Source of the DNA: an uncultured delta proteobacterium | GTDB taxonomy: Bacteria > Myxococcota_A > Polyangia > Polyangiales > Polyangiaceae | Reading direction: 5' to 3' | DNA: 64,000 nt | Assembly: GCA_963839305.1 (NCBI GenBank) | Contig: CAWIUL010000011.1 | Span: 2,313,561 to 2,377,560, forward strand | Part shown: in pieces, positions 1,699 through 55,657 of the stretch | How positions within the stretch are numbered: the stretch's first letter is position 1 | Layout of the letters: each line of letters opens with the position of its first letter | Translations under genes and position numbers: made by a program | The notes under the pieces: generated by a model | Database searches by the model: none | Seen by the model: the letters and a program-made list of their open reading frames with translations, nothing else | What the model was told of the DNA's origin: nothing

Positions 1699-3189
1699 AT
1701 GCAGCCCAGATTTCACGTGCAGAACGACGTGGCTGGCAGCCCAGACGTGAACACCTCGTGCGTTCTCTGTGGGGGCACTAGGCGGACGTATCTCGTCGTC
1801 GGCGCGCGCGCGCGGATGACTCGCTGCGACGAATGCCAGCTCGTCTTACGGACGGACCAGGGACGGCACACGGCGCGCGCGGAGTCCTTCGGTTTGGACG
1901 ATGACAGCGAGCGCACCATCCGAGCGATGCTGCTCGGCAAGGGCACCGCGCGCCGCAAGGTGCTCGCAATCGTCGACGGGGACAACACGCACGCGCGCTT
2001 GCGCGAAGACCCTCGCCTCGACGTCACGCTGACGACGACCGCGGAGCTCGACTCGACGCCGGTCGGAGCGTTCGACGCCGCGTTCGTGAACGGCTCCATC
2101 GAGTCGTTCAATCCGCGCGGCGTGATGAAGCGCGTGCGCGCCTCGTTGAAGCCGGGCGGCGATCTCGTCATCGTCGTGGCGGAGTGGTCGCTCCAGAAGC
2201 CGAAGCTCCCGCGCTACGCGTTCAGCGCCGTGCCGCTCACGCGCCTCACGCTCGAGGCCGGGTTCCGAACGGTCTCGTGCGGTGTCCTCTCACGGTCGAT
2301 GGAGACCGCGCCGACGGACGAGCGCCTCGCCGCCGACCACATCCCGCTCGAGAAGATGGCGCGCGTCCTCGAGGCCGTCGGCAAGCGCGTCGAGGTGCCG
2401 ACGGGGCTGCTCGTCATGCACGCGCGCGCCGAAGCGCCGCCGGCCCGTCCGATGCTCTCGATCATCATGCCGGTGTTCAACGAGTCGAAGACGTTCGCGG
2501 ACACGTTCGAGCACGTCTACGCGGCGCACGTTCCCGGCGTCGATCGCGAGATCGTGATCGTGGAGAGCAACTCCACCGACGGTTCGCGCGATCTCGTGCG
2601 CAAGGTCGAGGGGCGCGAGGGCGTCGTCGTCCTCTACGAAGAAAACCCGCAAGGAAAAGGCCACGCGGTGCGCGCGGGCATCGAGGCGTCGAAGGGCGAC
2701 TACATCCTCATCCAAGACGCGGACAGCGAGTACGACGTGGGCGACTACGACATCGTCCTCGGTCCGCTCATCGAGCACCACGCCACGTTCGTGCTCGGCT
2801 CGCGCCACCTCGGCGGGCGCACGTGGAAGATCCGCTCGTTCGCCAACCAGAAGCTCCTCTCGTACGTGATGAACATCGCGCACGAGTCGTTCACGGCGCT
2901 CGCGAACGCGCTCTACCTCACCGAGATGCGCGACCCGACCACGATGTACAAGGTCTTCCGGCGCGACGCGTACGAGGGCATTCGCTTCACGCGTGATCGC
3001 TTCGACTTCGACTGGGAGCTCGTGTGCAAGCTCGTGCGCCGCGGGCACGTCCCCGTCGAGGTGCCCGTGAACTACCGCTCGCGCTCGTACGCCGAGGGCA
3101 AGAAGGTACGCTTCCTCCAAGACCCGCTCACGTGGCTCGAGACGATCGTCGCGAGCCGCTTCGAGCCGCTGGCCGAGGAAGAAGAGTAG
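1699..3189 (+). CDS. fusion protein: zinc-ribbon/methyltransferase-like N-terminal domain plus a family-2 glycosyltransferase (GT2) C-terminal domain
   Basis: Track ORF 1699..3189. N-terminal CVLCGG...CDEC ribbon. C-terminal SIIMPVFNE ... QDADSEYD (DxD) GT2 signature. Confidence 0.8.
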   Translation: MQPRFHVQNDVAGSPDVNTSCVLCGGTRRTYLVVGARARMTRCDECQLVLRTDQGRHTARAESFGLDDDSERTIRAMLLGKGTARRKVLAIVDGDNTHARLREDPRLDVTLTTTAELDSTPVGAFDAAFVNGSIESFNPRGVMKRVRASLKPGGDLVIVVAEWSLQKPKLPRYAFSAVPLTRLTLEAGFRTVSCGVLSRSMETAPTDERLAADHIPLEKMARVLEAVGKRVEVPTGLLVMHARAEAPPARPMLSIIMPVFNESKTFADTFEHVYAAHVPGVDREIVIVESNSTDGSRDLVRKVEGREGVVVLYEENPQGKGHAVRAGIEASKGDYILIQDADSEYDVGDYDIVLGPLIEHHATFVLGSRHLGGRTWKIRSFANQKLLSYVMNIAHESFTALANALYLTEMRDPTTMYKVFRRDAYEGIRFTRDRFDFDWELVCKLVRRGHVPVEVPVNYRSRSYAEGKKVRFLQDPLTWLETIVASRFEPLAEEEE

Positions 3190-3198
3190 CGCTCGGCG

Positions 3199-4845
3199 CT
3201 ACGGCGAAAGCGGCGTGCCGAAGCCCGGTGCCGGCGGCGAGACGGCCTTGTAGGCCGCGCGCGACTCGGAGAGCCACATCAACGCGGGATCGTCGAGCGA
3301 TCGATCGAAGCTGAAGCGAACGCGCGCCGGCGCCGTGGTGCCGTCGGAGAGGACCTCCGCGCGCATTCCCGGGACCTCGCGCACGTCACCCGTGTGGAGC
3401 GCGTCGTCTTCGCGCCGGAAGATGTCGTCGGCCCCTAGCGGAAAAAAACCCTGGCCCTTCGGGACGACGACGTCGGCCGTGCGATCATCGACGCGGAGCA
3501 CGAGCGCGTGCCGCGCGGTGACGAGCACGCGCCATGGAATGCGCCGCGGCGTCGGCGAGGGCGGGAGCGTCAGCCCGAAGAACGCCGACTCCCAGCTCCC
3601 GAGCGCGACGATGACCGCGCTCGGCTCGTGCCCGCGGAGATGGTCGTCCAGCGATGCCGCGCGCGCCTTTGCGTCCTCGCCGAGCCTTCGATACGCCGCG
3701 CTCTCGCGGAGCGACGAGCGCACCGCGACTGCGCCGTGGAGCACCACGACGAGCCCCGCGATCGCCGCGTAGTGCAGGCGAACGGGCTTCGACGCCGCAA
3801 AATCGACGAGCCATCCGAGCGCGCCGGCGACGCCAATCAGCATCGGCCCCGTGAGCCTCTGCCCCGGCGTCGACGCGAGCAGCGGGAGAGCCGCGAGGAG
3901 CGAGCCGCCCGCGAGCCAACGAACGTTTCCCGTGAACGACTTCGCGACGAGCGCGAGCAGCGCCGCGGCGACGACGACGAGCCCGGCGAGCGGCCAGAGC
4001 GACGCGTCGAACGACGTCCACGCGTCGGCCCAGAGGACGAGGAGCGAACGCGGCGCGTGCGCGAAGAACTGCGCCGGCGAGTGGAGTGGATCTCGATAGA
4101 ACCCCGTGCCGATCGCGCCGTAGCCGAGGAGCGCGCGGACGACGACGTAGATCGTCGCGGGCACGGCGAACGGCAAGAGCGCGCGCGCCCGCTCGCGCGC
4201 GCTCGGACGGGTCATCGCCCACGCGACCGCGTAGCCGCCGAAAGAGAGCGCATACTCGCCAGCCGAGAGCGCGACCGCGAAGAACGCCGCAGACAAAATC
4301 GGCGACGCGCCCTTCGGCCGAACGCCGAAGGCGACGCCGAGCGCGCCGAACGTCGTCGCGACGAGCACCTCGCGCTGAGCGAGGAGCGCGAGGGGAAGCA
4401 CGTGCGCCGGCGCGAGCGCGAAGATCCAAGTCGCGATCGTCGCCGCGCGCTCGCCGAGCAAGAGTCGAAAGAGCCACCCGGTCGCGACGACCGCCGCGGC
4501 CCACCACAAGAGCGAATGGACATGCATCGCGAGCGGCGAGCCGACGAAGCGGTGCTCGAAGAAGAGCATCGCGGACGCGAGCGGCCGAAAGAACCTCAGG
4601 CTCAGGTCGTCGGCGGCCCACCACGGCAGCGCGCCCGACGCGACGAAAGCGGCGCGCTCGCTCGGGCGGATGAAGTCGTAGAGGTCGAGCGGACCGCGCG
4701 GCGCGGGGTACGAGCCGAGCGCCATCGCGCGTTGAAGGAGGTCGTCGCGGAAGAGCGGCGTGGCGACCGCCCTCGCGAAGACCGCTGCGCCGACGGGGAG
4801 CGAAAACCACGCTCCTGCGCGCCAGAGGCCCTCGCGACGCATCAT
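3199..4845 (-). CDS. large polytopic membrane protein, putative GT-C-type glycosyltransferase / glycan-assembly membrane protein
   Basis: Track ORF 3199..4845 (548 aa). More than 10 predicted TM helices in the N-terminal two thirds, then a C-terminal soluble domain. Convergent with the GT2 gene. Confidence 0.6.
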
Positions 4846-41335: not shown

Positions 41336-44300
41336 CCGCGTTCCTTCGTCGTCACGCGTCCGCGGTCTGGCTCGCGACGGCCGTGCTCGTGCTGCTCGGC
41401 GTCGCGTCGGCGTGGCGTCTGCCGAGCGGCATCTACCCCGAGGTGGAGTTCCCGCGCATCGTCGTCGTGGCGCGCAGCGGCGGCGCGCCGCCCGACGTGT
41501 TCCTCACGAACGTGACGCGCCCGCTCGAGCAGCAGCTCGCCACCGTCCTCGGCGTGCAGCGCATCCGCTCGCGCACCATCCGCGGCGCGACCGAGATCTC
41601 GCTCCAGTTCTCGCCCGAGACCGACATGTGGCGCGCGCTCCAGCTCGTCGAGTCGCGGGTCAACGAGACGCGCAGCGCGCTTCCGCCAGGCGCGGAGATC
41701 ATCGTCGAGCGCGTCACCACCGGCTCGTTTCCCGGTCGTCACGTTCAACGTCTCGGGCGCGGTCGATCCGCGCGAGCTACGCGAGGTCGCCGAGTACGTC
41801 GTGCGCCCCGCGCTCGGTAACGTCGCCGGCGTCGGTCGCATCGAGGTGCTCGGCGGCGACGTGCGCGAGGTCGAGGTCGTGCTCGATCCCGAGGCGCTCG
41901 CGTCGCTGCAGCTCGACGCCCTCCGCGCTCGCGGCGAAGCTCGAGCCCTCGGCTGGGCCTCGCGGCCGTCGGACGCGCGCTCGATGGAAGACAGCAGCTC
42001 ACGGTCATCGCCGACGCGCAGCCGAAGACGCTCGCCGACATCCGCGAGATGCCCGTCGTCACGACGTCGACCGGCGGCGTGGTGCCGCTCGGCTCGATCG
42101 CCGAGGTCGTCGACGGCGCCGCCGATCGCACCGTGCGCATCGGCGGGCCACGCGGCGAGACGGTCGTCATCAGCGTCGCGCGCCTGCCCGGCGCGAGCAC
42201 GCCCGACGTCGTCCGCGGCGCGCTTGGCGCCGTCGCGGCGCTCGCGCTCGAGCCTCCCGGCGGGCGTCGCGCGTCGACCCGGTCTACGACCAGGCGAGCC
42301 TCGTCGGCGAGTCGATGGCGAGCGTGCGCGACGCGATCCTCCTCGGCATCGCGCTCTGCGCCGTCGTGATCGCGCTCTTTCTGCGCGATTTGCGCGCGGG
42401 GCTCGTCGCGGGCATCTCCGTGCCGATCACGCTCGCGATCAGCTTCGTGTTCATGCGCCTCGCGCACGCAGACGCTCAACCTGATGTCGCTCGGCGGCAT
42501 GGCGGTCGCAATCGGCCTCGTCGTCGACGACGCCATCGTCATGATCGAGGCCATCGCGCGGCGCATCGGAGCAAGGCGACCGGCCCGACGAGGCAGCCGC
42601 GCGAGGGCACCGCAGAGCTCGCGCCCGCCGTCATCGGCACGACCCTCACCACCGTCGTCGTCTTCGTCCCGCTCGCGTTCCTCGAGGGCGTCGTCGGCGA
42701 CTTCTTCCGCGCGCTCGCCTTCACGGTCACGACGGCGGTGGTCGTCTCGCTCGTCGTCGCGCTCGTGCTCGTCCCGCTCGTGCCGCGCCGCGCGCGCCGC
42801 GAACAGAGCGTCACGCAGGAGCGCTCGTGGCTCACGCGCGCGTACGACCGCGTCGTCGGCGTCACGATCGCGCGGCCCCGGATCGCGCGTCGCGGCGTTC
42901 GTCGTGGCGCTCGCGTGCATCGTGCTCGTCGCGCCGCACCTTCGACGCGGTTTCTTGCCCACGATGGACGAGGGCGCGTTCGTGCTCGACTACTTCTTGC
43001 CGGCCGGCACGTCGCTCGACGCGACCGAGCACTACGCGCGCGAGCTCGAGACCGAGCTCCGGGCGACGCCCGAGGTGCGCACGTTCTCGCGCCGCACCGG
43101 CGCCGAGCTCGGCCCGGCCGCGGCGACCCAGGCGAACCGCGGCGACATCATGGTGCGGCTCGTGCCTCGAGGACAGCGCAAGCGCTCCGCGGACGACGTC
43201 ATCGCGGACGTTCGCGCGCGCGTCGAGAAGCGCGTTCCCGAGGTGCGCATCGAGTTCGTCCAGGTCCTCCAGGACGTGCTCAACGATCTCTCGGGAAACC
43301 CGCGGCCGATCGAGGTGAAGGTCTTCGGGCCCGACTACGCGAAGCTCCACGAAATCGCCTCCGACATCGCGGCGCGCGTCCGCCGCGTGGACGGCCTCGT
43401 GGACCTCTACGCGGGCGAGGAGCGCCACGCGCCCGAGCTGCGCTTCTCGATCGACCGCGACGCGGCCTCGCGCTTCGGCGATCACGCCCGACGAGATATC
43501 CGCGGAGCTCGACACCGCGCTTCGCGGACGCGTCGTCGGGTCGGTGCGTCGCTACGATCGCCTCATCGGCGTGCGCGTGCGCTACCCGAATCCCGTCCGC
43601 TTCGATCGCGCGCGCGATCCTCGATCTTCCGTTCGCGACGCACGACCGCGTGACGACGTATCGCGCCGTGTCGAACGTGTCCACCACGCAGTCATCCCCG
43701 GAGCTGCTCCACGAGGCGCTCCAGCCCATGGTCGCCGTCACCGCCGATCACGAGGGCCGCGATCTCGGCGCCGTCGCCGACGAGGTCGACGCGATCGCGC
43801 GCTCGGTCGCTTTGCCGCAGGGCTACCGCCTCGTGCTCGGCGGCCAGGCCGGCGCGAGCGCGCCACGTTGAAGCAGTTGCTCGGCGTCGGCGCGCTCGCC
43901 GTGCTCCTCGTGCATCACCGTTCTCGCCGCGCAGTTTCGTCGCGTCCGCGTCGCGGCGCTCGTGCTCGGCACGGTCCCCGTCGCGATCGTCGGCGGTGTG
44001 CTCGCGCTCTGGGTCACGCGCGTTCCGCTCAACGCCTCGTCGCTCATGGGCTGCGTGCTGCTCGTGGGCCTCGTCGTGAAGAACGGCGTGCTGCTGCTCG
44101 AGGAGGCCGAGCGCTTCGTCGACGAAGGCGCATCACCTCAAGACGCCGTCCTCCGCGCGGGCGAGCGCCGCCTTCGCCCGATCATGATGACCACGCTCGC
44201 GACGCTCGCGGGCCTCGCCCCGCTCGCGCTCGGCATCGGCGCAGGAGCCGAGCTCCAGCGTCCCCTCGCGGTCATGGTCATCGGCGGCCTCGTCACCTCG

Positions 44301-44393
44301 ACCCTCGCGACGCTCGTCCTGCTCCCGCCCCTCGCCGCGGTGCTCTTGCGCGAAACGCAGCTTTCTTGGCCACGACGCCGCGGAGCACGATGA
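41332..44393 (+). pseudogene. RND (AcrB/CzcA-type) inner membrane transporter, broken by at least 8 frameshifts
   Basis: ATG at 41332 overlaps the MFP stop. Conserved RND segments are scattered over track ORFs 40699..41820, 41801..42484, 42049..42369, 41412..43871, 42484..43653, 43544..44404 and 43962..44393 in all three + frames (e.g. MSLGGMAVAIGLVVDDAIVMIEA, VFVPLAFLEGVVGDFFRALAF). Confidence 0.75.
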
Positions 44394-44400
44394 TTGGCGC

Positions 44401-45066
44401 ATGAAGCTGCATGCTCTTGCGCTCGCCGCCGTCGCCTCGTCCGTCGTCTTTTCCGCGTCGCGCGCTGACGCGCAAGACAACGCGGGAACCGCGCCGCCAC
44501 CGCCGACCACGACGACGACGCCGCCCCCGCCCCCGCCCCCGGCGGCTACCACCGTCGCCCCCGCCGCGCCGACCGAGACGAAGGCGCAAATGGAGAACGG
44601 CTTCGCGTTCGAGACGCACATGTACTCGCAGGTCGTGAGCTTCGGCGCCGGCCTCGGCACCACGCTCAACTTGCCGCTCGTCACCGGCGGCATCTTCGCC
44701 GGCTTCAAGCTGGATCGTCTCGTGATCGGTCTTTCGTACAACTTCACGTCGTTCGACGCGGGCGGCGCTCAGATCGCGATGACCTGGGTGCCCGGCATCC
44801 GCTACGTCTTCGTTCGCACGACGGACGAACGCGTCGAGCTCTTCGGCCAGCTCGACATCGGCATCGGCCACAACTTCGGCAACTCGGAGAGCAACGAGAT
44901 CATCCCCGCCGACGTCGGCATCGGCGTTCGCTATTGGGTGCACCGCCAGTTCGCGATCTCGACGGCGGGCGGTTGGAACGGCAACTGGGTCCTCACGCAG
45001 AACCCCAGCACGAGCGAGGTGAGTCAGGGCATCTTCGCCGGTTTGCAAGTCATGGGAGTGTTCTGA
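44401..45066 (+). CDS. secreted beta-barrel/OMP-like protein with a Pro/Thr-rich linker
   Basis: Track ORF. Signal peptide, [16 protein letters not shown] linker and alternating beta-strand pattern. Confidence 0.55.
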
Positions 45067-45281: not shown

Positions 45282-45337
45282 CGGCAGCGGAAAAGTCAGG
45301 CTGGTAGGACAAGCCGTGTTTACCGTGGGATCAGCGG

Positions 45338-45408
45338 TTCGGGCACAGGGATTCGAACCCCGATAAGCGGCACCAAAAACCGCTGTCCTGCCATTAGACG
45401 ATGCCCGA
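45338..45408 (-). tRNA. tRNA-Gln (anticodon UUG)
   Basis: Cloverleaf folded by hand. Acceptor TCGGGCA/TGCCCGA, D-stem GTCT/GGAC, anticodon stem GCGGT/GCCGC with loop TTTTGGT (U33, anticodon TTG, G37), T-arm CGGGG-TTCGAAT-CCCTG, discriminator A. Coordinates may be +/-2. Confidence 0.8.
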
Positions 45409-45466: not shown

Positions 45467-47002
45467 TCAGTAGGGGTTGTCGTCGCCGGTGGGCTTCGGC
45501 TTGGCGGTGGCGGTCGCCGTTGCCGTGGGTTTGGCCGTCGCCGTCGCTGTTGCGGTCGCCGTTGCCGTGGCAGTCGCGGTTGCGGTCGCCGTGGCCGTCG
45601 CGGTCGTGGTCGCGGTGGTCGTCGCGGTCGCGGTGACCGTCGGGCGCGCGGTGGGGACGAACGTGGCCGTCGGGACCGCTGTGGTCGTCGTGGCGGCGCT
45701 CGCGGAAGGCGCGGCGGACGCGCTCGTCACGACGGTCGCGCTCGGCTCGGCCGATGCGGACGCGGCGACCGACGCGCTCGGCGTGACGCTCGGAGGGGGC
45801 GCGACGGAAGCGGTCTGCGTCGGCGCCGGAGCGCCGTTGAAGAGACCCGCTTTGTACGCGACGCCCGCGCCGACACCGAGGACGACGACGAGGCCGATCA
45901 CGATCATGCCCGTGTTGCTCTTCTTCTCTTTTTCGGGCGTCTTCATCGCGGCGGTCGCGCTGATCGGCTCGACGGGCTTCGGACGCTCGGACGCCACCTT
46001 GCGCGGCGTTTCCATGACGTCCTTGCGCTCGACGACTTGCTCGACGGCGGGCGCCGCAGCGATCGGCTCGGGAGCTTTCTCCTCGGGCCCTTTCTCCTCG
46101 GGCGCCTTCTCGGGCTCGGGTTTCTCAGCGGCAGCCTCGCCGGTTGCGCTCTCGGGCTCGTGCGCGGGCGCGCCAGCGGCGGGCCTCGGCGGCTCCGGCT
46201 TCTTGTCGACCGCGCCGACTTCTTCCATCGAGCCGCCGGCCTCTTTGAGCGCTTCCTCGAGAAGCTCCGCGGCCTGCTTCATGACCGTGCGCTCTTGCGG
46301 CGGCGGCATGTCCGCCTCGCTGTCGGTCTTCGGGAAGAATCCGCCGCTGTCGTCTTTGCGCTCCGTCTGCTTCGAGACGGGCGACTGCGGCATCGTGCGC
46401 GCGAGCGGCGAGCCCGACGCGGTCGCGCCCTTGGGCACCGCGCCCTGCGCTCCGAGGCCCATCATCGTCTTTTTCACCGAAAACGCGGGCTTCGCGGCGC
46501 CCATGCCCGGCGTCGTGGTCGGAGATTTTGGCGCGCCCGACGGCGAGCCGCTGACGGTCGCAGGCGGCGAGGCGCTCGGGGTCACGGGCGGCGTGCTCGC
46601 GTTCGGCGGCGGCGGCGTCACGGAGGCGCCGGCTTCCGCCAGGTATGCGCTCCCCGCGTCGCTCTTCGAGCCCGTGAGCTTGTCGATGGTCTGGCGCGAG
46701 GCGTCGTCGATCTTGATGAACTTCACGCCCATGCCGGCGGGCCGCTCGGCGCTGGATCCGCCGGCTTCACGCTTCCACACGACGCGCCCGACGCCCGCGA
46801 TCACGGGCTGATCGGCCGCGAGGCGGATTTCGAACTTGAGGAGCGTGCCGATCGCGAATGGCTTGTCGGTCTTGATGAAGACCCCGCCCTTGCTCACGTC
46901 GTGAGAGTGGTTCTCGATGAACTCGTCGACCGTCGCGCTTTTGTAGCGGACGTTCAGGCTCACGATTTTTGCGCGGGGATCTTTGCGCGTGTCTTGAGTC
47001 AT
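45467..47002 (-). CDS. PilZ-domain protein with a long Pro/Ala/Thr/Glu-rich region, one TM helix and a C-terminal (Thr-Ala)n tail
   Basis: M16 of track ORF 45467..47047. PilZ motifs RKDPR (RxxxR) and DVSKGG (DxSxxG). TM helix MIVIGLVVVLGVGAGVAY. Tail TATATATATATATATATATATAKPTATATATAKPKP. Confidence 0.75.
   Translation of the reverse strand: MTQDTRKDPRAKIVSLNVRYKSATVDEFIENHSHDVSKGGVFIKTDKPFAIGTLLKFEIRLAADQPVIAGVGRVVWKREAGGSSAERPAGMGVKFIKIDDASRQTIDKLTGSKSDAGSAYLAEAGASVTPPPPNASTPPVTPSASPPATVSGSPSGAPKSPTTTPGMGAAKPAFSVKKTMMGLGAQGAVPKGATASGSPLARTMPQSPVSKQTERKDDSGGFFPKTDSEADMPPPQERTVMKQAAELLEEALKEAGGSMEEVGAVDKKPEPPRPAAGAPAHEPESATGEAAAEKPEPEKAPEEKGPEEKAPEPIAAAPAVEQVVERKDVMETPRKVASERPKPVEPISATAAMKTPEKEKKSNTGMIVIGLVVVLGVGAGVAYKAGLFNGAPAPTQTASVAPPPSVTPSASVAASASAEPSATVVTSASAAPSASAATTTTAVPTATFVPTARPTVTATATTTATTTATATATATATATATATATATATAKPTATATATAKPKPTGDDNPY
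45480..45640. repeat. imperfect tandem hexanucleotide repeat (GCSGTSGCC-like), encoding the (Thr-Ala)n tail on the minus strand
   Basis: About 25 consecutive units of ggcggt/cgccgt/ggccgt within the 3' end of the PilZ gene. Confidence 0.6.
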
Positions 47003-47061
47003 CGGAACGCCATCGTAACGCGTTGTCCCAGGAAAACGCCAATCCACTAGTATGGGGCCGC

Positions 47062-47403
47062 GTGGCGGATGACGACACAGCCAGGGACAAGCCGCGTTTT
47101 CGGGCTCATGCGCGAAAACCCGTGCGATTGGCCGCGGTTCTTGCCCACCGGGACCGTGGGTGGCAGCGCGACGTCATCGTGTTCGACCTCGGCCTTGGGG
47201 GCGCTTGCGTCGAGTCGAGCGACGTCCTCGGCGTCGGAGACAAGGTCCAGGTCTCGTTCGTGACCGCCGAGCGTTGGGACCCGCTCCAAATCGCCGCGCG
47301 CGTCGTCTGGACCTCGCAGACCCGCGCGGGGCTCGCCTTCGAATACGCGTCGCCCGAGAGCACGTGGGGCGTCTTCGAGCTGCTCTCGGGGGGCTCGTCG
47401 TGA
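47062..47403 (+). CDS. stand-alone PilZ-domain protein
   Basis: In-frame GTG within track ORF 46969..47403. RFRAHAR (RxxxR) and DLGLGG (DxSxxG-like) motifs. Divergent from the larger PilZ gene. Confidence 0.6.
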   Translation: MADDDTARDKPRFRAHARKPVRLAAVLAHRDRGWQRDVIVFDLGLGGACVESSDVLGVGDKVQVSFVTAERWDPLQIAARVVWTSQTRAGLAFEYASPESTWGVFELLSGGSS

Positions 47404-47909
47404 CGCGCGACGCCGCGCGTGCGATCCTCGACGCGCTCCGCGTGGTCGTCCGCGATCTACGCCTCAGCGCGCGCGAGGCCGAGCGCGTAGCGCACATCAC
47501 CGGCGCGCAGATCTTCGTGCTCCAGCAGCTCGAGCAGGGTCGCACGCTGTCGCTCAACGATCTCGCCGAGCGCACGATGACCGATCAGAGCTCGGTGTCC
47601 GTCGTCGTGAAGAGGCTCGTCGCGGCGAAGCTCGTCGCGCGAAAGGCCTCGCCGTCGGACGCGCGGCGCCTCGAGCTGACGCTCACGCCCGCGGGAAAAA
47701 AGCTCCTCGCGCGCTGCCCCGAGCCGACGCAAGTTCGCCTGCTCGGCGCGCTCAAGCGGATGACGGCGGCGGAGCTCGACGCGCTCGACGTGGGTCTCGT
47801 GGCGCTCGTGCGCGAGATGGGCATCCGCGACGAGCGCGCGGGGATGTTCTTCGAAGAGACCGCGTCACGCGTCGTCGCGCGAGCTCGCCGCGACGTCGGG
47901 CGACGATGA
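47400..47909 (+). CDS. MarR-family transcriptional regulator
   Basis: GTG overlaps the PilZ stop (GTGA). It lies in the frame of track ORF 47160..47909. Winged-helix region LSLNDLAERTMTDQSSVSVVVKRLVAAKLV. Confidence 0.75.
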   Translation: MTRDAARAILDALRVVVRDLRLSAREAERVAHITGAQIFVLQQLEQGRTLSLNDLAERTMTDQSSVSVVVKRLVAAKLVARKASPSDARRLELTLTPAGKKLLARCPEPTQVRLLGALKRMTAAELDALDVGLVALVREMGIRDERAGMFFEETASRVVARARRDVGRR

Positions 47910-49768
47910 TGGTTCGACCGGCAAGCGGCCCGACACGGGGACGCGCGGGACCGAGCGAAGCCACGCCGGCACGATGAGGCTCAGCGGGAGGATGCGCTCG
48001 CGGCGCTGCTCCTCCTCGAGGTGGCGCACGCGCGCCTTGAGCATGTCGCGCAAGGCGATCGTGCCGTGCAGCTTTCGGCGATCGTCTCGATCGACGACTG
48101 GGAGCTCGGCGCGTCCCGTCTGAGCCATGCGATAGACCACGACGCGGAGCGGCTCGTCGTCGTAGGCGGTCACGGGCACGTGGACGATCGACGAGAGCGT
48201 CGCGCGATCGTCCGGCGTCTGATCGCACCACTGCTCGAGCTGCCACCGCGTCACGACCCCGACGAGCGAGCCCGCCGTCGTCGACGACCGCGAAGAGCCG
48301 CTGCTCGCGGCGCGCGCCGTCGATCGCGCCCGCGATGTCGCGCTGCGTGAGCGTGCCGGGCAGCGCCGCGACGTCGGTCGACATCACCTCGCGCACGAAG
48401 AGGATCTCGAGCGGGTCGGTCTCGTACTCGCGCGTGAGGTGGAAGCCGCGCCGGCTCACCTTCTCCGTGAGGATGGAGCGCTTGAGGAGCAGCACGGTGA
48501 ACAGCGTGCGCGCACGTGACCGCGAGCAAGAGCGGGACGAGCACGCTCACGTCGTGCGTGAGCTCGAGCACGAAGAGGATGCCGGTGAACGGCGAGCGCA
48601 TCGTCCCGCCGAGGATCGCGCCCATGCTGACGAGCGGCCAGAAGCCGGTGCCCTGGCTCGGAAAGAAATGCGCCTCGAGGCCGCCGAGCGCGGCGCCCAT
48701 CATCAGGAGCGGCGCGAGCACGCCGCCTGACGTGCCGGAGCCGAGCGACACCGACCAGATCGTCCACTTCACCGCGACGAGCACGATGAGCGCCGAGCCG
48801 ACGAGCTCCCCGCGGAGGAGCTGCTCGATCACGTCGTAACCGACGCCGAGCGCGCGCGGCTCGACGAGCCCGCCGAGGCCGACGACGAGCCCGCCGATCG
48901 CGGGCCACCACATCCAGTGGATCGGCAGCTTCTGGAAGAGATCCTCGAACGCGTACACGCTGATCGTGAGGAGCGCGGAGAGGCCGCCCGCGAGCAGACC
49001 GCAGAGCACGCACGCGCCGATCGACGGCAGCGAGACGAGCGCTTGGTGCGCAGGCACGGGAAAGAGCGGGCCGGGGCCGAGGAGGTGTCGCCGAAAGAGC
49101 GACGCGGTCACGCTCGCGAGCGCGACCGGGACGAGGCTGCGCGGCTTCCACTCGAACAGGAGGAGCTCGACCGCGAGGAGCGCCGCGGCGACCGGCGAGG
49201 CGAACGTCGCCGACATGCCCGCGGCGGCGCCCGCGACGAGCAGCGTCTTTCGCTCGGCGGCGGTGAGGCGGAAGAGCTGCGCGATGATCGAGCCGAACGC
49301 GCCGCCGGTCATGATGATCGGCCCCTCCGCGCCGAACGGACCGCCGGAGCCGATCGAGATCGCGGACGAGAGCGGCTTGAGGAGCGCGACGCGCGGCTCG
49401 ACGCGGCTGCCCTTCAGCAGGATCGACTCGATCGCCTCGGGGATGCCGTGGCCGCGAATGCGCTCGGACCCGTAGCGCGCCATGAAGCCGATGACGAGCG
49501 CGCCGACGACCGGCACGAGCACGGCCCAGTAACCGAGGTGGTTTCCGGCGGGCGAGACGAGATCCGTCGAGATGCGCTGGTAGAAGAAGAGGTTCGTGAA
49601 GAACCCGATCATGCGCAAGAGCGCCACCGCGACATAGGCCGCGAGCGCGCCGATGAATACGGCGAGGAGCGCGATGGGGATGACGCGAGGCGAGGTGGTG
49701 AAGTCTCCGAGCTCTTGATTCGCGCGTTTTGGACTGCTCACGCGGGAAACATATTGGCTCCCATACAA
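47865..49768 (-). pseudogene. ClC-family chloride channel with C-terminal CBS pair; two frameshifts
   Basis: Channel core in track ORF 48251..49768 (GSGGPFGAEGPI, GTSGGVLAPLL). First CBS in ORF 47752..48495. Second CBS in ORF 47865..48254. Junctions near ~48497 and ~48255. Confidence 0.75.
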
Positions 49769-49778
49769 ATGCGCCAGC

Positions 49779-51125
49779 TCATTGAGCGACTGTGGCGGAT
49801 TCGACGCGCGCGGCGAGCGCGAGCACGGCGTCCTCGGAGCCGGGAGGACCCAGGATTTGCAGCGAGCGCGGGAGCCCCGTGCCGTCGAATCGGCCGCATG
49901 GCACGGCGACCGCCGTCGCGTCGGTGAGGTTGCCGAGCATCACGAACGACGGCGCGCGAAGCGCGAGGACCGCGCGGCGGTGCTTGGGAGGGAGCTGCGT
50001 GGTCGTGGGCGAGACGAGCAGCCGCCCGGAGGACCACGCGAGCTTCGCGGCGTCGCGCAGCGACTCGACGCGCTCGACCTGCGGCGCAGGATCGCGATAG
50101 CGGACGAGCTTGCCGAGGCCGACGAGCGCGAAGAGCGCGCCGCTCACCGGGTGAAGCCGCTTGTCGAGGCGCCCGTTGGTGAGGACGCCGAGCGCGGTCG
50201 CGGCGAGGCCGTCGCGGATCGACATCTCCTCGACGCCGACGAACTCGAAGAAGTGCGACGAGAGGTACGCACCGAACGCCTCGTTCACCACGCTCGGCGA
50301 CGGCAGGCCGTGATCGCGATCGACCTTCACGCGAGCGCGCGCGAGCACCTCGAGCGCGTCGCGCTCGAACGTGGGCCAGCGGCCGACGTGCGCCTCGTCG
50401 GGCAGGTAGAGGATCGCGCGCGACGGATCCATCTCGGGTCGCTCGGGCCCGGTGCGCAGCGCGGGCGCGAGCGCGTCCACGACGCGCTTGGCGGTCTCGA
50501 CCTTGCGCGCGAGCGGGCCCATCCCGCAAAACGACCAGAACCGCGGAGAGATGCGCGGGAAGTGCTCGCGGTCGACGGGCCACGTCCGAGACGAGAGGCG
50601 CAGGCCGACGACGCCGCAGAACGCCGCGGGCAAACGGATCGATCCGCCGAAGTCGGTGCCCCAGTCGAACTCGGCCATGCCCGAAGCGACCGCCGCCGCG
50701 CCGCCGCCCGTGCTCCCGCCCGCCGTGCGCGACGCGTCGTATGGGTTCTTCACGGGGCCGAACATGTGATTGTCGCTCTCCATCGAGAACGCCATGTCGC
50801 AGAGGTTCGATTTTCCGAGCAGCACGGCGCCCGTCTCTTGGAGCGCCGCGTAGATGCGGCTCGACTCCTCGGGCACGCGCTCGCGATGACGGTACGAGCC
50901 GCCGGTCGTCGGGATGCCCGCCGTGTCCCACACGTCCTTCAGCACGTACGGAACGCCCGCGAGCGGGCCCTCCTTCGTCTCTTGAAGCGGCCGCTTCAAG
51001 ACGTGGAGCACGGCGCGCAGCTCGTCGTTGCGCGCCGCGATCGTCGCGCGACACGAATCGACGGAGAGGGTCCGCACGCTCGAGCCTCCTGGCGAGAGTT
51101 CGGACCCAGTCACGGACGAGCTCAC
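49779..51125 (-). CDS. amidase-signature family amidase
   Basis: GTG (V83) in track ORF 49779..51371. Motif GGSTGGGAAAVASG plus Ser-cisSer-Lys region. The start overlaps the upstream gene stop (GTGA). Confidence 0.85.
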   Translation of the reverse strand: MSSSVTGSELSPGGSSVRTLSVDSCRATIAARNDELRAVLHVLKRPLQETKEGPLAGVPYVLKDVWDTAGIPTTGGSYRHRERVPEESSRIYAALQETGAVLLGKSNLCDMAFSMESDNHMFGPVKNPYDASRTAGGSTGGGAAAVASGMAEFDWGTDFGGSIRLPAAFCGVVGLRLSSRTWPVDREHFPRISPRFWSFCGMGPLARKVETAKRVVDALAPALRTGPERPEMDPSRAILYLPDEAHVGRWPTFERDALEVLARARVKVDRDHGLPSPSVVNEAFGAYLSSHFFEFVGVEEMSIRDGLAATALGVLTNGRLDKRLHPVSGALFALVGLGKLVRYRDPAPQVERVESLRDAAKLAWSSGRLLVSPTTTQLPPKHRRAVLALRAPSFVMLGNLTDATAVAVPCGRFDGTGLPRSLQILGPPGSEDAVLALAARVESATVAQ

Positions 51126-52295
51126 TTGATCTTGCCGGCCTTCGCCGAGCGCGGCATCTCGACGGTCTTCATCAGATCCTTGTGGCGCTTCTGGATCTGC
51201 TTGTCGAGCGCCTTCACCGCCGGGTTGCGCGCGTCGTAGAGGCGGCGGTGCTTCTTGTGCACCGTCGCGTCGCTGAGGAGCGCGTACGTGAGCCACGGAA
51301 AGACCGCGGTCACGTCCGCGTGCACGTAGACCGAGCCGTACTGCACGCTCTCGGCCGAGACCTTGCCCCACGTGTGCCCCTCACCCGCGGGGCACGAAGA
51401 GAGCGCGCCGTTGTCGACGGGGTCGACGCAGAACTGCACGTCGAAGTCGAAGCCGTGCGTCGGCACGCCGAGGATCTGATCGAGCAGCGGCTCGCCCTGG
51501 AGCGTGTAGTTCTTCGGGACGCCACCGCCGAGGATCCAGATCGCCATCTTCTTCTTGAGCGTCGAGAAGCAGTGGTGCTGCATCGCGCCCATCTCGAAGA
51601 CGTCGTCGTTCACGTCGATCTCGAGCTTGAACTCGCTGCCGAGGAGGCGACGGAGCTTCACGATGTTGAGGAAGATCGACCCGTCTTGCACTGCGCCGAC
51701 GAAGATCGGGACGCCGTAGCGGTACGCGGTCGCGAGGAGCGACGGGCTCTTCACGCCGAGCGCGCTCTCGATCGCCGCGATGTGCTTTCCGAGCAGGTAG
51801 TGGAGCTCGACCGTCGTCATCCGCTTTTGGAACTCGGGCTTGCGGAGGATCGCCGAGAAGAGCTGGTCGGTCTCGAGGAGCGTCTCTTCGTGGAAGCCGA
51901 GGTCGTAGATGCGGATGATGCGCGCGAGGCGGTACTGGAGATCGCCGCCGTTCGGATCGATCTCGCGGATGCGGTGGCCGATCGATGCGGTGCGCGTCGT
52001 GATAGAGGTTCGCGCCCGTCGTCGTGATGCAGTCGATGAGCCCGCGCTCGACGAGCGGGATGATGCACGACTGGTGAAGGCCCGCGGGCGTCATCGCCCC
52101 GCTGAACGTGAGAAAGACGCACGTGTCGTCGCGCGAGCTTCGCTGCATGAGCTCGAACGCCGTTCGCTCCTGGCGGCCGACGTACGCCGGGAACGCGCGC
52201 GCGACGATGTCCGCCGGCTTTTCGCGGCCGGTGATGCCCACGGGGTGAACGTCGCGTTGCTTCTCGAACCCTTTGCGGAGGCCAGTCTTCGCCAT
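51122..52295 (-). CDS. deoxyhypusine synthase-like protein, frameshifted near 51985
   Basis: N-terminal 120 aa (ITTTGANLYHDAHRI) in track ORF 51381..52343 from M17. Remainder (GGGVPKNY ... ) in track ORF 51122..51820 and its upstream extension. Confidence 0.7.
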
Positions 52296-52379
52296 GATCG
52301 GGACGCATCTTTTAGTGGCCCTTCGGCCCTTCCGTCCAGCCACCCTTGCCGCGGCCGAAAAATGCGCTCAAATGCGCGC

Positions 52380-53802: not shown

Positions 53803-55642
<1,840 letters not shown>

Positions 55643-55657
<15 letters not shown>

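Follow-up and report, generated by a model that had tools for sequence, protein, structure and literature searches.

Genes for MarR-family regulators commonly stand divergent from their targets, with the regulator binding the intergenic region. In Alg44 of Pseudomonas aeruginosa, the periplasmic part is a folded, membrane-fusion-protein-like domain within the alginate polymerase complex. The single-domain PilZ protein TssZ (PA0012) of the same species prevents HinK from binding DNA, and c-di-GMP changes the interaction (PMC10912698). Stand-alone PilZ proteins are common in Myxococcus xanthus (14 of 24; PMC8316039, PMC10313047), and the 24 PilZ proteins of that species are largely not conserved in the Sorangiineae and Nannocystineae (PMC8316039). 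Among myxobacterial PilZ proteins, motif content does not predict c-di-GMP binding in either direction: PlpA has both motifs yet fails to bind c-di-GMP, and PixB lacks the motif Ser yet binds it (PMC8316039). In the literature searched, we found neither a PilZ-MarR pair nor TIGR02266 proteins nor a PilZ/PilZ-MarR arrangement described, and no account of a ClC-CBS channel gene as a conserved target of a MarR-family regulator.

Results

The locus analysed here lies in a 64,000-nucleotide stretch of Polyangiaceae DNA, referred to below as the window. Its PilZ genes and the regulator gene that follows them are:

45467..47002, minus strand: long PilZ gene, 511 aa (open reading frame, Pfam PilZ, TIGR02266; start placed from orthologues)
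46667..47002, minus strand: PilZ domain of the long protein, aa 1-112 (motifs read from the translation)
46217..46336, minus strand: conserved cytoplasmic motif FFPKT..MPPPQERTVMKQAAELLEEALKEAGGSMEE, aa 223-262 (21-sequence alignment)
45845..45913, minus strand: predicted single transmembrane helix, aa ~364-386, GMIVIGLVVVLGVGAGVAY (Kyte-Doolittle)
45470..45844, minus strand: predicted extracytoplasmic tail of the long protein, 125 aa (composition)
47003..47061: spacer between the two PilZ genes, 59 bp
47062 (GTG)..47403, plus strand: small stand-alone PilZ gene, 113 aa (Pfam PilZ, E=2.3e-9)
47400 (GTG)..47909, plus strand: MarR-family regulator gene, 169 aa (Pfam MarR_2, MarR)

A preliminary description of this DNA had placed two PilZ genes back to back across 59 bp, and the starts at 47002 (minus) and 47062 (plus) bear this out. 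The divergent PilZ/PilZ pair is the conserved unit at the locus. Divergence is found wherever a small-PilZ relative comes with enough upstream sequence, at 33-88% small-PilZ identity (the window, L001-L007, L009-L011, L093 and also L094, where the available sequence reaches just 13 codons into the long PilZ gene), and this recurrence shows that the arrangement is more than chance. Identity between the two PilZ domains is only 20%, which means that the pair did not arise by a recent duplication. Over its first 45 residues, the long protein does not differ at all between genomes in which small-PilZ identity is down to 50%.

The open frame of the long gene runs over 45467..47047 on the minus strand (526 aa). 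ATG 47002 is the true start, because the orthologues all begin M-x-QDTRKDPRAK and diverge upstream of it. The product lies above the curated threshold of PF07238 (48 bits against 22.5, E=1.7e-12, residues 20-124 of the 526-aa frame) and also reaches TIGR02266, the NCBIfam model of a myxobacterial paralogous PilZ-type domain (77.3 bits against a cut-off of 68.7). There are 369 relatives at E<=1e-10, and relatives are annotated only as 'TIGR02266 family protein' (NCBI, JGI; Polyangiaceae/Myxococcota MAGs). Composition and hydropathy agree with the earlier picture of a minus-strand PilZ protein with low complexity, one transmembrane helix and a (Thr-Ala)n tail: the order is an N-terminal TIGR02266-type PilZ domain, linkers, the helix and an Ala/Thr-rich tail. 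Both c-di-GMP motifs, RxxxR and [D/N]xSxxG, are canonical (R6-KDP-R10 and D35-V-S-K-G-G40); across 21 family members, R6, R10, D35, G39 and G40 never vary and S37 is at least 90% conserved.

A P/A/S/G/T-rich linker (aa 113-222) and an A/E/P/K-rich one (aa 263-363) flank a stretch in which F223, P224, T239, M241, Q243, A244, A245, L247, L248, A251, L252, G256 and S258 are invariant in the 21 sequences, and for which a low-confidence AF2 model predicts a helix at 238-255. This conserved stretch, 223-262, is missing from the preliminary description. The transmembrane helix is the sole hydrophobic segment, with 19-residue Kyte-Doolittle windows up to 2.35, and the K-rich flank EKEKKSN on its N-terminal side suggests that the N-terminus is inside. 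The tail (A 32%, T 32%, P 12%) contains (Thr-Ala)n and ends in DDNPY; in the C-terminal (D/S)DNPY, DNPY is kept in L001, L002, L005, L007, L009, L011, L093 and the family consensus.

For the small PilZ protein, we favour GTG 47062 as the start because orthologues keep the upstream peptide (P)RFRAHAR(K); the public annotation of the genome (P0010, 93 aa) uses a later start and loses the RFRAHAR motif. The protein is above the PF07238 threshold (37.9 bits against 22.5) and, at 29.1 bits, below the NCBIfam cut-off of TIGR02266, to which it is not assigned. It has 36 relatives. The motifs read R14-AHA-R18, preceded by R12, and D42-L-G-L-G-G47. F13, R14, A15 and R18 are at least 90% conserved in the alignment, and RxxxR persists as RAFAR or RTHAR in relatives of 33-39% identity. 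The canonical Ser of [D/N]xSxxG is absent, its place being taken by G44, invariant in 18 sequences, and the two most distant sequences have Asn for the Asp of this second motif. Because an invariant Gly replaces the motif Ser, c-di-GMP binding by the small PilZ is not assured. An AF2 model (pLDDT 77.8) has six strands and a C-terminal helix in a beta-barrel fold, and its best Foldseek matches in the PDB are the PilZ domains of BcsA (4i86, E=8.6e-6, TM 0.69/0.78), Alg44, PA0012 and MapZ.

The regulator was compared with the MarR family models PF01047/PF12802 and exceeds the Pfam thresholds of MarR_2 (47.5 bits against 27, E=2e-12), MarR (43.1 against 24.6, E=4e-11) and HTH_27 (33.1 against 22.2). 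It falls below every NCBIfam equivalog cut-off, with weak matches to the HpaR and OhrR models, and so belongs to no named subfamily. Its sequence equals that of the annotated protein P0037 (100% identity), and it has 755 relatives; no residue of the recognition helix, TDQSSVSVVV, varies in the family alignment.

Open reading frames and Pfam matches agree with the earlier reading that the 113-aa plus-strand PilZ gene ends inside GTGA with a MarR-family gene, the GTG of the latter overlapping the TGA of the former. The adjacency is not unique to this genome, as a synteny check shows: the junction occurs in seven distinct contigs (the window, L094, L007/L008, L011, L012, L013 and L093). Six of the seven have an NTGA overlap, at 66-83% MarR identity, as GTGA (window, L012), ATGA (L094, L007) or TTGA (L011, L013), and L093 has a degenerate CTGA. 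The small PilZ gene occurs without MarR in L009/L010 (78% identical) and in L001-L006, where it adjoins the same convergent amidase gene. Conversely, 63 of 69 loci with MarR relatives lack PilZ and six have a small PilZ gene (loci with at least 350 bp upstream). Consistent co-occurrence of PilZ and MarR across genomes was not found beyond one sub-clade, to which MarR after small PilZ is confined. The proposal of a co-expressed c-di-GMP receptor and MarR regulator therefore stands as to co-expression, favoured by start/stop overlap in six of seven contigs with different start codons, and finds no support as to a dedicated partnership, given the small PilZ genes without MarR, the MarR genes without PilZ, and a MarR family whose conserved partners are a ClC-CBS channel gene and a palindromic site.

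Two alternative explanations bear on this junction. In one, the small PilZ would be a c-di-GMP-dependent adaptor on the co-translated MarR dimer, altering its DNA binding and placing the MarR regulon, here ClC-CBS, under c-di-GMP. Translational coupling through three different start codons fits such an adaptor, as does a fold whose C-terminal helix resembles that of the adaptors PA0012/TssZ and MapZ; TssZ-HinK (PMC10912698) is a precedent for a single-domain PilZ blocking DNA binding by a transcription factor, and L007, L093 and L013, with no ClC nearby, retain the junction. However, the small-PilZ family is older and wider than the pairing, and the 78%-identical L009 member, which has no MarR, suggests that the primary role of the small PilZ is independent of MarR. 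The 63 PilZ-less MarR loci and the invariant Gly also speak against the adaptor, and motif content is in any case no guide to binding (PlpA, PixB; PMC8316039). We consider it unlikely.

In the other, the PilZ pair would be independent of c-di-GMP and the MarR adjacency a neutral result of insertion between the PilZ and amidase genes. This would accord with the Gly in the second motif, the score below the TIGR02266 cut-off, PlpA as a precedent of a non-binding PilZ protein (PMC8316039), the variable presence of MarR and ClC among closely related loci, and phylogenies that do not separate MarR gain from loss. Yet RxxxR with its preceding Arg (RFRAHAR) is kept down to 33-39% identity, PixB binds c-di-GMP without the Ser (PMC8316039), and the 4-nt overlap is maintained without decay while its start codons change. 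We regard neutral insertion as somewhat unlikely.

Elsewhere in its family, the MarR gene has a different setting. Among the 66 MarR loci with at least 500 bp downstream, a ClC gene lies directly downstream on the same strand in 33 and is convergent in three; a Fur-family gene is divergent in 24 MarR loci. A palindrome of 12-18 bp, (T)ATGGGnnCCCAT(A), sits on the MarR start codon in family loci. With at most one mismatch, 47 of its 55 sites in 433 kb are at MarR starts, where it is present in 45 of 71 non-PilZ loci against none of eight PilZ-linked loci; with at most two mismatches it is present at 58 of the 71, against 0.037 expected per equal window, and 13 of the 71 lack it even then. PilZ-linked and ClC-linked MarRs do not differ at T59-V70, R81, D87, R89 and R90, the residues of the recognition helix and wing, and should therefore share one DNA specificity. 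We infer that the palindrome is the putative MarR operator. The assignment to MarR is made from co-occurrence only, the alternative being another factor.

In the 59-bp spacer, conserved promoter-like hexamers lie 8-9 nt from the start codons: TACGAT for the minus strand, at 47012-47017, and TAGTAT for the plus strand, at 47048-47053; a consensus promoter scan of 47003..47061 gave no match. Spacer palindromes are only 6-8 bp long, and the spacer holds no conserved family palindrome. MarR as a local repressor here, autoregulating the PilZ-MarR operon and controlling the divergent long PilZ gene, would have the classical MarR layout of a divergent target with intergenic binding, and candidate sites exist: an 8-bp palindrome, AACGCGTT (47017-47024), and a two-mismatch version of the family palindrome, ATGGGGCCGCGT, at 47052, overlapping the small-PilZ start. 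However, AACGCGTT is degenerate in L007, L009 and L011, L094, L007, L011 and L093 do not keep the 47052 site, and none of the eight PilZ-linked loci has the family palindrome with at most one mismatch near MarR or PilZ starts. The blocks CCATCGTAAC, GAAAACGCCAA and TAG[GT]AT, common to L007, L009, L011, L093 and L094, are equally present in L009, which is MarR-less, and the divergent pair is older than the arrival of MarR. Local repression of the spacer thus seems very improbable to us.

Two features beyond the MarR gene bear on its putative target:

47865..49768, minus strand: ClC-type channel gene with two CBS domains (Pfam Voltage_CLC, E=5.6e-81; CBS, E=2.9e-7)
49753..49764: palindrome resembling an operator, at the 5' end of the ClC gene (minus-strand reading, TGTATGGGAGCCAATATG)

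The ClC-CBS gene is convergent with MarR, their 3' ends overlapping by 45 bp, and in the assembly it is read in three frames, with changes near 48495 and 48255. L012 and L094 have the same convergent arrangement. The palindrome at 49753..49764 is the sole match to ATGGGNNCCCAT with at most one mismatch in the 64-kb window; its mismatch is CCAAT for CCCAT, and L094, the closest relative, has a perfect CATATGGGACCCCATATG at the same ClC 5' position. A short frame on the window palindrome, MGANMFPA*, resembles the MGTN... N-termini of the L071 and L090 MarRs. Because the palindrome starts 14 nt after the amidase stop codon and has no convincing -10 hexamer for ClC near it, transcription of ClC may come from the amidase gene by read-through.

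The window MarR and ClC are of mosaic origin. The MarR is 61-69% identical to Fur-linked MarRs against 46-47% to those of L071 and L087, and the ClC is 69-72% identical to the ClCs of L071 and L087 against 50-53% to Fur-linked ones. Three PilZ-MarR loci (L007, L013 and L093) have neither ClC nor palindrome within the available sequence, which suggests that MarR acts elsewhere there, or that the PilZ link has a value of its own.

The PilZ pair is often accompanied by one particular Ser/Thr kinase gene, found in the window as:

53803..55650, plus strand: Ser/Thr protein kinase gene (Pfam Pkinase, E=2.9e-46)

Its C-terminal part is frameshifted in the assembly. The kinase domain is 61% identical to that of an L002 kinase whose gene follows the long PilZ gene 15 bp downstream, and the kinase is similarly placed in L005 and L004.

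Discussion

The most likely explanation of the locus, which we favour with modest confidence, is that MarR is a ClC repressor whose gene has moved under the small-PilZ promoter, with ClC-CBS repressed in trans. The locus would then consist of two units of different age, the PilZ pair and the MarR regulator. The first would be an old divergent PilZ pair of the Polyangiaceae with back-to-back promoters, its mRNAs probably almost leaderless. By homology, both products would be receptor or adaptor proteins with presumed c-di-GMP binding, the long one a single-pass membrane protein with its N-terminus inside and its PilZ domain in the cytoplasm. The second unit would be a MarR whose family normally stands first in a MarR-ClC(CBS) operon, its start codon inside the palindrome. 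In the window's sub-clade, the MarR gene would have lost the palindrome and become joined by the 4-nt overlap to the 3' end of small PilZ, and the convergent ClC-CBS gene beside it would still carry the palindrome at its 5' end. MarR would be made from the small-PilZ promoter, translationally coupled to small PilZ, and would probably repress ClC-CBS in trans at 49753..49764. Channel control would thereby be tied to control of the PilZ pair, in place of MarR autoregulation.

The adaptor role considered above for the small PilZ is compatible with a ClC repressor, as an extra layer. The overlap has been kept while the MarRs diverged to 66-83% identity, as expected for proteins needed in fixed proportion; this counts against the favoured explanation as it stands and would fit a physical partnership. 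Also counting against that explanation are the mismatch in the window palindrome, the possible read-through into ClC, the three PilZ-MarR loci with neither ClC nor palindrome, and the 13 of 71 MarR loci that lack the palindrome even at two mismatches. Direct contact between PilZ and MarR is possible. Going further, the small PilZ could be a c-di-GMP-dependent partner of the MarR dimer made from the same mRNA, with c-di-GMP setting ClC-CBS expression, and a c-di-GMP signalling unit that spans the envelope and is specific to Polyangiaceae might be built from the membrane-anchored long PilZ, the small PilZ and the conserved kinase; we hold this to be quite unlikely.

Judged from its sequence, the locus looks like a modestly interesting rewiring; a new signalling mechanism is not demonstrated. 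It nevertheless presents an uncharacterised, strongly conserved gene pair in poorly studied, natural-product-rich soil bacteria, the Polyangiaceae, and with it concrete candidate c-di-GMP effectors in that family. A regulatory module that is apparently undescribed joins MarR, a sharply defined palindrome and a ClC-CBS channel gene; it occurs in many soil metagenome contigs of 54-75% G+C and offers a direct handle on the control of bacterial ClC-CBS channels. The locus would also illustrate one route by which a repressor is rewired, its gene having parted from its operator and come under the promoter of a gene for a second-messenger receptor. Should the PilZ also touch MarR, the short list of PilZ adaptors on transcription factors would be extended; a c-di-GMP-dependent partnership, if true, would be a first both as a PilZ-MarR adaptor pair and as a link from c-di-GMP to chloride/proton channel control.

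Among known systems, TssZ resembles the small PilZ in structure, PA0012 being among the matches of its model (8u0i, TM 0.63/0.82), but TssZ has canonical motifs, whereas in the small PilZ a Gly takes the place of the motif Ser. Moreover, HinK is of LasR type, whereas the window regulator is a MarR, and the HinK partnership came from two-hybrid screening, whereas PilZ and MarR are linked here by gene order. In MrkH of Klebsiella pneumoniae, a PilZ-containing transcription activator that the small-PilZ model matches less strongly in structure (5kgo), c-di-GMP sensing by PilZ is likewise linked to transcription. There, however, PilZ and DNA binding share one polypeptide without a MarR-type winged helix; here two separate genes are translationally coupled.

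The long PilZ has the topology of Alg44, in which a c-di-GMP-binding PilZ domain at the cytoplasmic N-terminus is followed by a single membrane helix and a C-terminal part outside the cytoplasm. The Alg44 PilZ domain (4rt0) was a top fold match, obtained with the small-PilZ model. Unlike Alg44, it has a disordered cytoplasmic linker of ~250 aa and an outer part of Ala/Thr low complexity ending in DNPY, and no polysaccharide synthase genes were found near the PilZ pair. The PilZ proteins of M. xanthus (PlpA, PixA, PixB, Pkn1 and CdbS; PMC8316039, PMC10313047) come from the same phylum and from an expanded PilZ family, and Pkn1, a Ser/Thr kinase-PilZ fusion, echoes the neighbourhood of long PilZ and kinase. 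None of them, however, has been described with a transmembrane anchor and low-complexity tail, as in the long PilZ, or next to a MarR gene, as is the small one. Finally, the window regulator shares with canonical MarR repressors (MarR, OhrR, HpaR) a winged-helix domain, and its family is associated with a short palindrome overlapping the start of the putatively regulated operon, but the apparent target of its family is a ClC-CBS channel gene, and in the window's lineage the MarR gene is detached from the palindrome.

The locus and its gene products

The genes for the long PilZ protein, the small PilZ protein and the MarR regulator are unbroken and colinear with their orthologues in independent assemblies, in a window whose G+C content is about 69% throughout. 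The preliminary description had reported two divergent PilZ genes across a 59-bp spacer, the one of 113 aa overlapping a MarR gene in GTGA, and it was right in every particular; the one transmembrane helix and (Thr-Ala)n tail that it gave to the long protein likewise agree with the single hydrophobic helix and (TA)n tail that we read from the protein.

Features of the locus (window positions)
41412..44393: AcrB-type RND gene, split across frames
44401..45066 (+): 221-aa ORF
45336..45408 (-): tRNA-Gln(TTG)
45467..47002 (-): long PilZ gene, 511-aa product (ORF 45467..47047, true start ATG 47002)
47003..47061: spacer between the PilZ genes, 59 bp
47062..47403 (+): small PilZ gene, GTG start, 113 aa
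47400..47909 (+): MarR gene, GTG start overlapping the small-PilZ stop as GTGA, 169 aa
47865..49768 (-): ClC-CBS channel gene, convergent with MarR, split across three frames
51122..52343: deoxyhypusine-synthase-like (DS-like) gene, split across frames
53803..55650: Ser/Thr kinase gene, split across frames

The start of the long PilZ gene was placed at ATG 47002 because all orthologues open with M-x-QDTRKDPRAK and similarity ends upstream of that point. Its N-terminal domain matches Pfam PilZ (E=1.7e-12) and TIGR02266, the NCBIfam model for a myxobacterial PilZ-type domain (77.3 bits; cut-off 68.7). Public annotation starts the small PilZ gene at the internal GTG 47122 instead of 47062, yielding a 93-aa protein (P0010) without RFRAHAR and hence without the RxxxR c-di-GMP motif; since the (P)RFRAHAR(K) peptide, upstream of the annotated start, is kept in orthologues, the 113-aa form is the correct one. 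The window MarR is identical to an annotated protein, P0037.

Residues 1-112 of the long protein form a PilZ domain in which both c-di-GMP motifs are canonical (R6KDPR10 and D35VSKGG40). A P/A/S/G/T-rich linker leads from there to a conserved stretch at residues 223-262 (FFPKT..MPPPQERTVMKQAAELLEEALKEAGGSMEE; 13 positions invariant in 21 relatives), which is followed by an A/E/P/K-rich linker, the hydrophobic helix at residues ~364-386 and a tail of 125 aa, rich in Ala, Thr and Pro, that ends in DDNPY, the C-terminal DNPY being kept in orthologues. From the EKEKKSN just before the hydrophobic helix, the PilZ domain is assigned to the cytoplasmic side of the membrane. An AF2 model of residues 1-290 was poor (pLDDT 55.5), its sole gain being a predicted helix at residues 238-255, within the conserved stretch. 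Relatives (369 at E<=1e-10) occur in Polyangiaceae, Minicystis, Labilithrix and Myxococcota MAGs, and the only name among them is 'TIGR02266 family protein'.

The tRNA-Gln gene lies 58 bp past the long PilZ stop. On the corresponding side in locus L007 (3161..4796) there are genes for an excisionase-like HTH_17 protein and for a phage-type integrase, which suggests an integrative element beside the long PilZ gene in that lineage. The 221-aa ORF between the RND and tRNA genes opens with what resembles a signal peptide, contains a stretch rich in Pro and Thr, and is rich in Gly and aromatic residues in its C-terminal part. It had no match in Pfam or NCBIfam; its position is taken in L009 by an OmpA-family gene adjoining the long PilZ gene.

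The small PilZ protein matches Pfam PilZ (E=2.3e-9) and shares 20% identity with the PilZ domain of the long protein. A profile search of PDB sequences gave nothing meaningful, so a fold search was needed: the model, a six-stranded barrel with a C-terminal helix (pLDDT 77.8), had its best PDB matches in the PilZ domains of BcsA, Alg44, PA0012/TssZ, MapZ and YcgR. Motif 1 is kept as R14AHAR18, and motif 2 reads D42-L-G-L-G-G47, with Gly44 invariant at the family's Ser position. These motifs do not settle whether c-di-GMP is bound, because in M. xanthus PixB lacks the Ser of the second motif and binds c-di-GMP nonetheless, while PlpA has both motifs and does not bind it (PMC8316039).

Conservation of the PilZ pair and of the MarR junction

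The long PilZ gene stands divergently upstream of the small one in all loci that have a small-PilZ relative and sufficient upstream sequence (small-PilZ identity 88% in L094, 85% in L093, 83-84% in L007, 83% in L011, 78-79% in L009, 50% in L001 and 33-39% in L002-L006); in L094 the long gene is cut off by the contig end after its first 13 codons. For pair conservation we drew on at least five distant loci from a contig scan with the small-PilZ alignment, one pattern of which was unspecific. A Ser/Thr kinase gene directly follows the long PilZ gene in two distant loci, L002 (2321..4303) and L005 (~3181..4098), and L004 (~3531..4037) matches the kinase less well, over the C-terminal part only. 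In the window, L001, L007 and L009 the kinase gene lies 6.4 kb away, on the opposite side of the pair, and the kinase domains of L002 and the window are 61% identical. From this placement and likeness we regard the kinase as a further recurrent neighbour of the pair. By analogy with M. xanthus Pkn1, a Ser/Thr kinase fused to a PilZ domain (PMC8316039, PMC10313047), kinase and PilZ pair may be functionally linked.

The coupling of small PilZ to MarR, for which a synteny search had been proposed, is not peculiar to this genome: it recurs in L094, L007/L008, L011, L012, L013 and L093, and annotated relatives on same-size contigs suggest three further pairs (P0009/P0130, P0004/P0043 and P0020/P0079). 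It is, however, confined to these loci. L009/L010 and L001 have no MarR, and there the small PilZ gene abuts the same convergent amidase/DS-like genes; most MarR loci lack the pairing as well. Within a sample of 87 MarR loci, 80 from a metagenome scan plus others, small PilZ was present at 6 of the 69 with at least 350 bp upstream. The preliminary description had further proposed that small PilZ binds MarR and relays a c-di-GMP signal to it. The overlap of start and stop is maintained over 4 nt while the start codon varies (GTGA in the window and L012, ATGA in L094 and L007, TTGA in L011 and L013; L093 instead has CTGA plus an alternative upstream start), the junction survives in loci without ClC, and TssZ-HinK offers a precedent (PMC10912698). 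Nevertheless, small PilZ and MarR are each usually found without the other, and the second PilZ motif carries the Ser-to-Gly change; we consider such a relay through direct contact rather doubtful.

The usual partner of this MarR family is a channel gene. ClC(-CBS) lies directly downstream on the same strand in 33 of 66 loci with at least 500 bp downstream, and is convergent with MarR in three (window, L012 and L094). An apparent MarR-ClC fusion ORF of 812-815 aa in L043/L047 was dismissed as an artefact, an open overlapping frame whose Pfam matches are to ClC and CBS only. A Fur-family gene is divergent from MarR in 24 MarR(-ClC) loci of the Polyangiaceae type (L015 4343..4879; L017 508..1023; L041 4306..4842; L091 4384..4863; 20 further loci), and none is found in the window. 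The MarR family has a nearly invariant Cys within ARCPEPTQ, and this Cys and the divergent Fur hint that the channel operon may be controlled by metals or redox state.

A palindrome tracking MarR and ClC

Alignment of MarR gene 5' regions revealed a palindrome, (T)ATGGGnnCCCAT(A), on the start codon. Translation begins at the left ATG of the palindrome in some genes (N-termini MGSHTS...) and at the right ATG in others (W-x-P-M...), usually with a TAnnnT-like hexamer 8-14 nt upstream. It heads MarR-ClC(CBS) operons in contigs of 54-75% G+C whose MarR identity is 44-69% (sites in L016-L092, for example L016 ~806-817, L043 and L058, with two copies in L069); TTCAATGGGATCCCATAC is an example of a group-2 site. 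At one mismatch or fewer there were 55 sites in 433 kb, 47 of them at MarR starts, and the starts of 45 of 71 non-PilZ loci carried one, against none of 8 PilZ-linked loci. Allowing two mismatches raised the former to 58 of 71, against 0.037 expected per equal-size window. The palindrome is seen both with and without a Fur neighbour and thus tracks MarR, not Fur; its loop of 2 nt makes an RNA hairpin implausible. We suggest that it is probably the operator of the MarR family. The recognition helix (TDQSSVSVVV) and wing residues are invariant in PilZ-linked and ClC-linked MarRs alike, so both groups would be expected to share one DNA specificity.

The only palindrome with at most one mismatch in the 64-kb window is at 49753..49764, where it overlies the 5' end of ClC-CBS; it reads TGTATGGGAGCCAATATG on the minus strand and begins 14 nt beyond the stop codon of the amidase gene. 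Of the relatives that share this layout L094 is the closest, and it has a perfect CATATGGGACCCCATATG in the corresponding position (2855..2866), 14 nt after a CATAAT hexamer. The invariant RWDP of small PilZ is coded by TGGGAYCC, which resembles the palindrome core (window ~47275..47289; three mismatches in the window, two in L013 54..65 and L093 4911..4922), probably a coincidence of coding sequence.

The spacer between the PilZ genes

Conserved blocks in the spacer (CCATCGTAAC, GAAAACGCCAA and TAG[GT]AT) include -10-like hexamers that end 8-9 nt before the starts, TACGAT before ATG 47002 and TAGTAT before GTG 47062, both compared in the spacers of the window, L007, L009, L011, L093 and L094. 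The distant loci L001-L005 have a similar block, ATCGTA (ATCCTA in L001) and then CCAA, ~35-125 nt from the long-PilZ ATG. The spacer would thus look like two back-to-back, overlapping divergent promoters and suggests nearly leaderless PilZ mRNAs, a reading that we infer from conserved hexamers seen by eye. A scan of 46900..47160 for consensus promoters and terminators made no call, spacer palindromes are of 6-8 bp only, and Rfam across the window matched tRNA-Gln alone, with no riboswitch for c-di-GMP, fluoride or any other ligand.

It could be argued that MarR is a classical local repressor acting at this spacer, where a look-alike of the family palindrome with two mismatches lies at 47052, at the small-PilZ start. 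This look-alike is not conserved in L094, L007, L011 or L093 and was taken as chance, and the conserved spacer blocks are present equally in the MarR-less L009, so that such a role appears very unlikely.

Origin of the locus

MarR and ClC differ in their affinities. The window MarR is 61-69% identical to those of Fur-linked Polyangiaceae loci and 46-47% to those of L071/L087, whereas for ClC the figures are 50-53% and 69-72%. PilZ-linked MarRs fall into a single clade adjacent to the MarRs of Fur-linked Polyangiaceae loci, and the ClCs of the window and L094 group with those of other MarR-ClC operons. Moreover, the window palindrome bears an 8-codon ORF (MGANMFPA and a stop) similar to the N-termini (MGTN...) of the MarRs of L071/L090. 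For these reasons the locus looks like a mosaic, in which a palindrome-headed ClC that would have shed its own MarR sits beside a differently descended MarR fused to the PilZ operon. Neighbour-joining trees of small PilZ, long PilZ and amidase conflict on whether the MarR-less L009 falls outside the MarR-bearing loci; MarR may have been lost from L009, or L009 may have diverged earlier than MarR arrived, and the trees support neither consistently.

Within ~15 kb, four genes (RND, ClC-CBS, DS-like and kinase) are each broken into two or three reading frames; the related assembly L094 likewise has a split ClC and a split amidase. This pattern points to assembly: the breaks are probably indel errors and not pseudogenes, and pseudogenisation of ClC in particular was judged unlikely.

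Interpretation and comparison with known systems

Every functional statement made here on the locus is an inference from sequence. On balance, we lean slightly towards the view that the PilZ pair and the kinase are an independent conserved module of c-di-GMP type, and that MarR represses ClC-CBS and has had its gene relocated behind the promoter of small PilZ. By that relocation MarR would have lost its autoregulation and gained co-expression with small PilZ. A literature search, which left most subscription journals outside its reach, found no description of the PilZ-MarR pair, of TIGR02266 proteins, of the MarR-ClC module or of the palindrome at MarR/ClC operon starts; all components of the locus are from well-known families.
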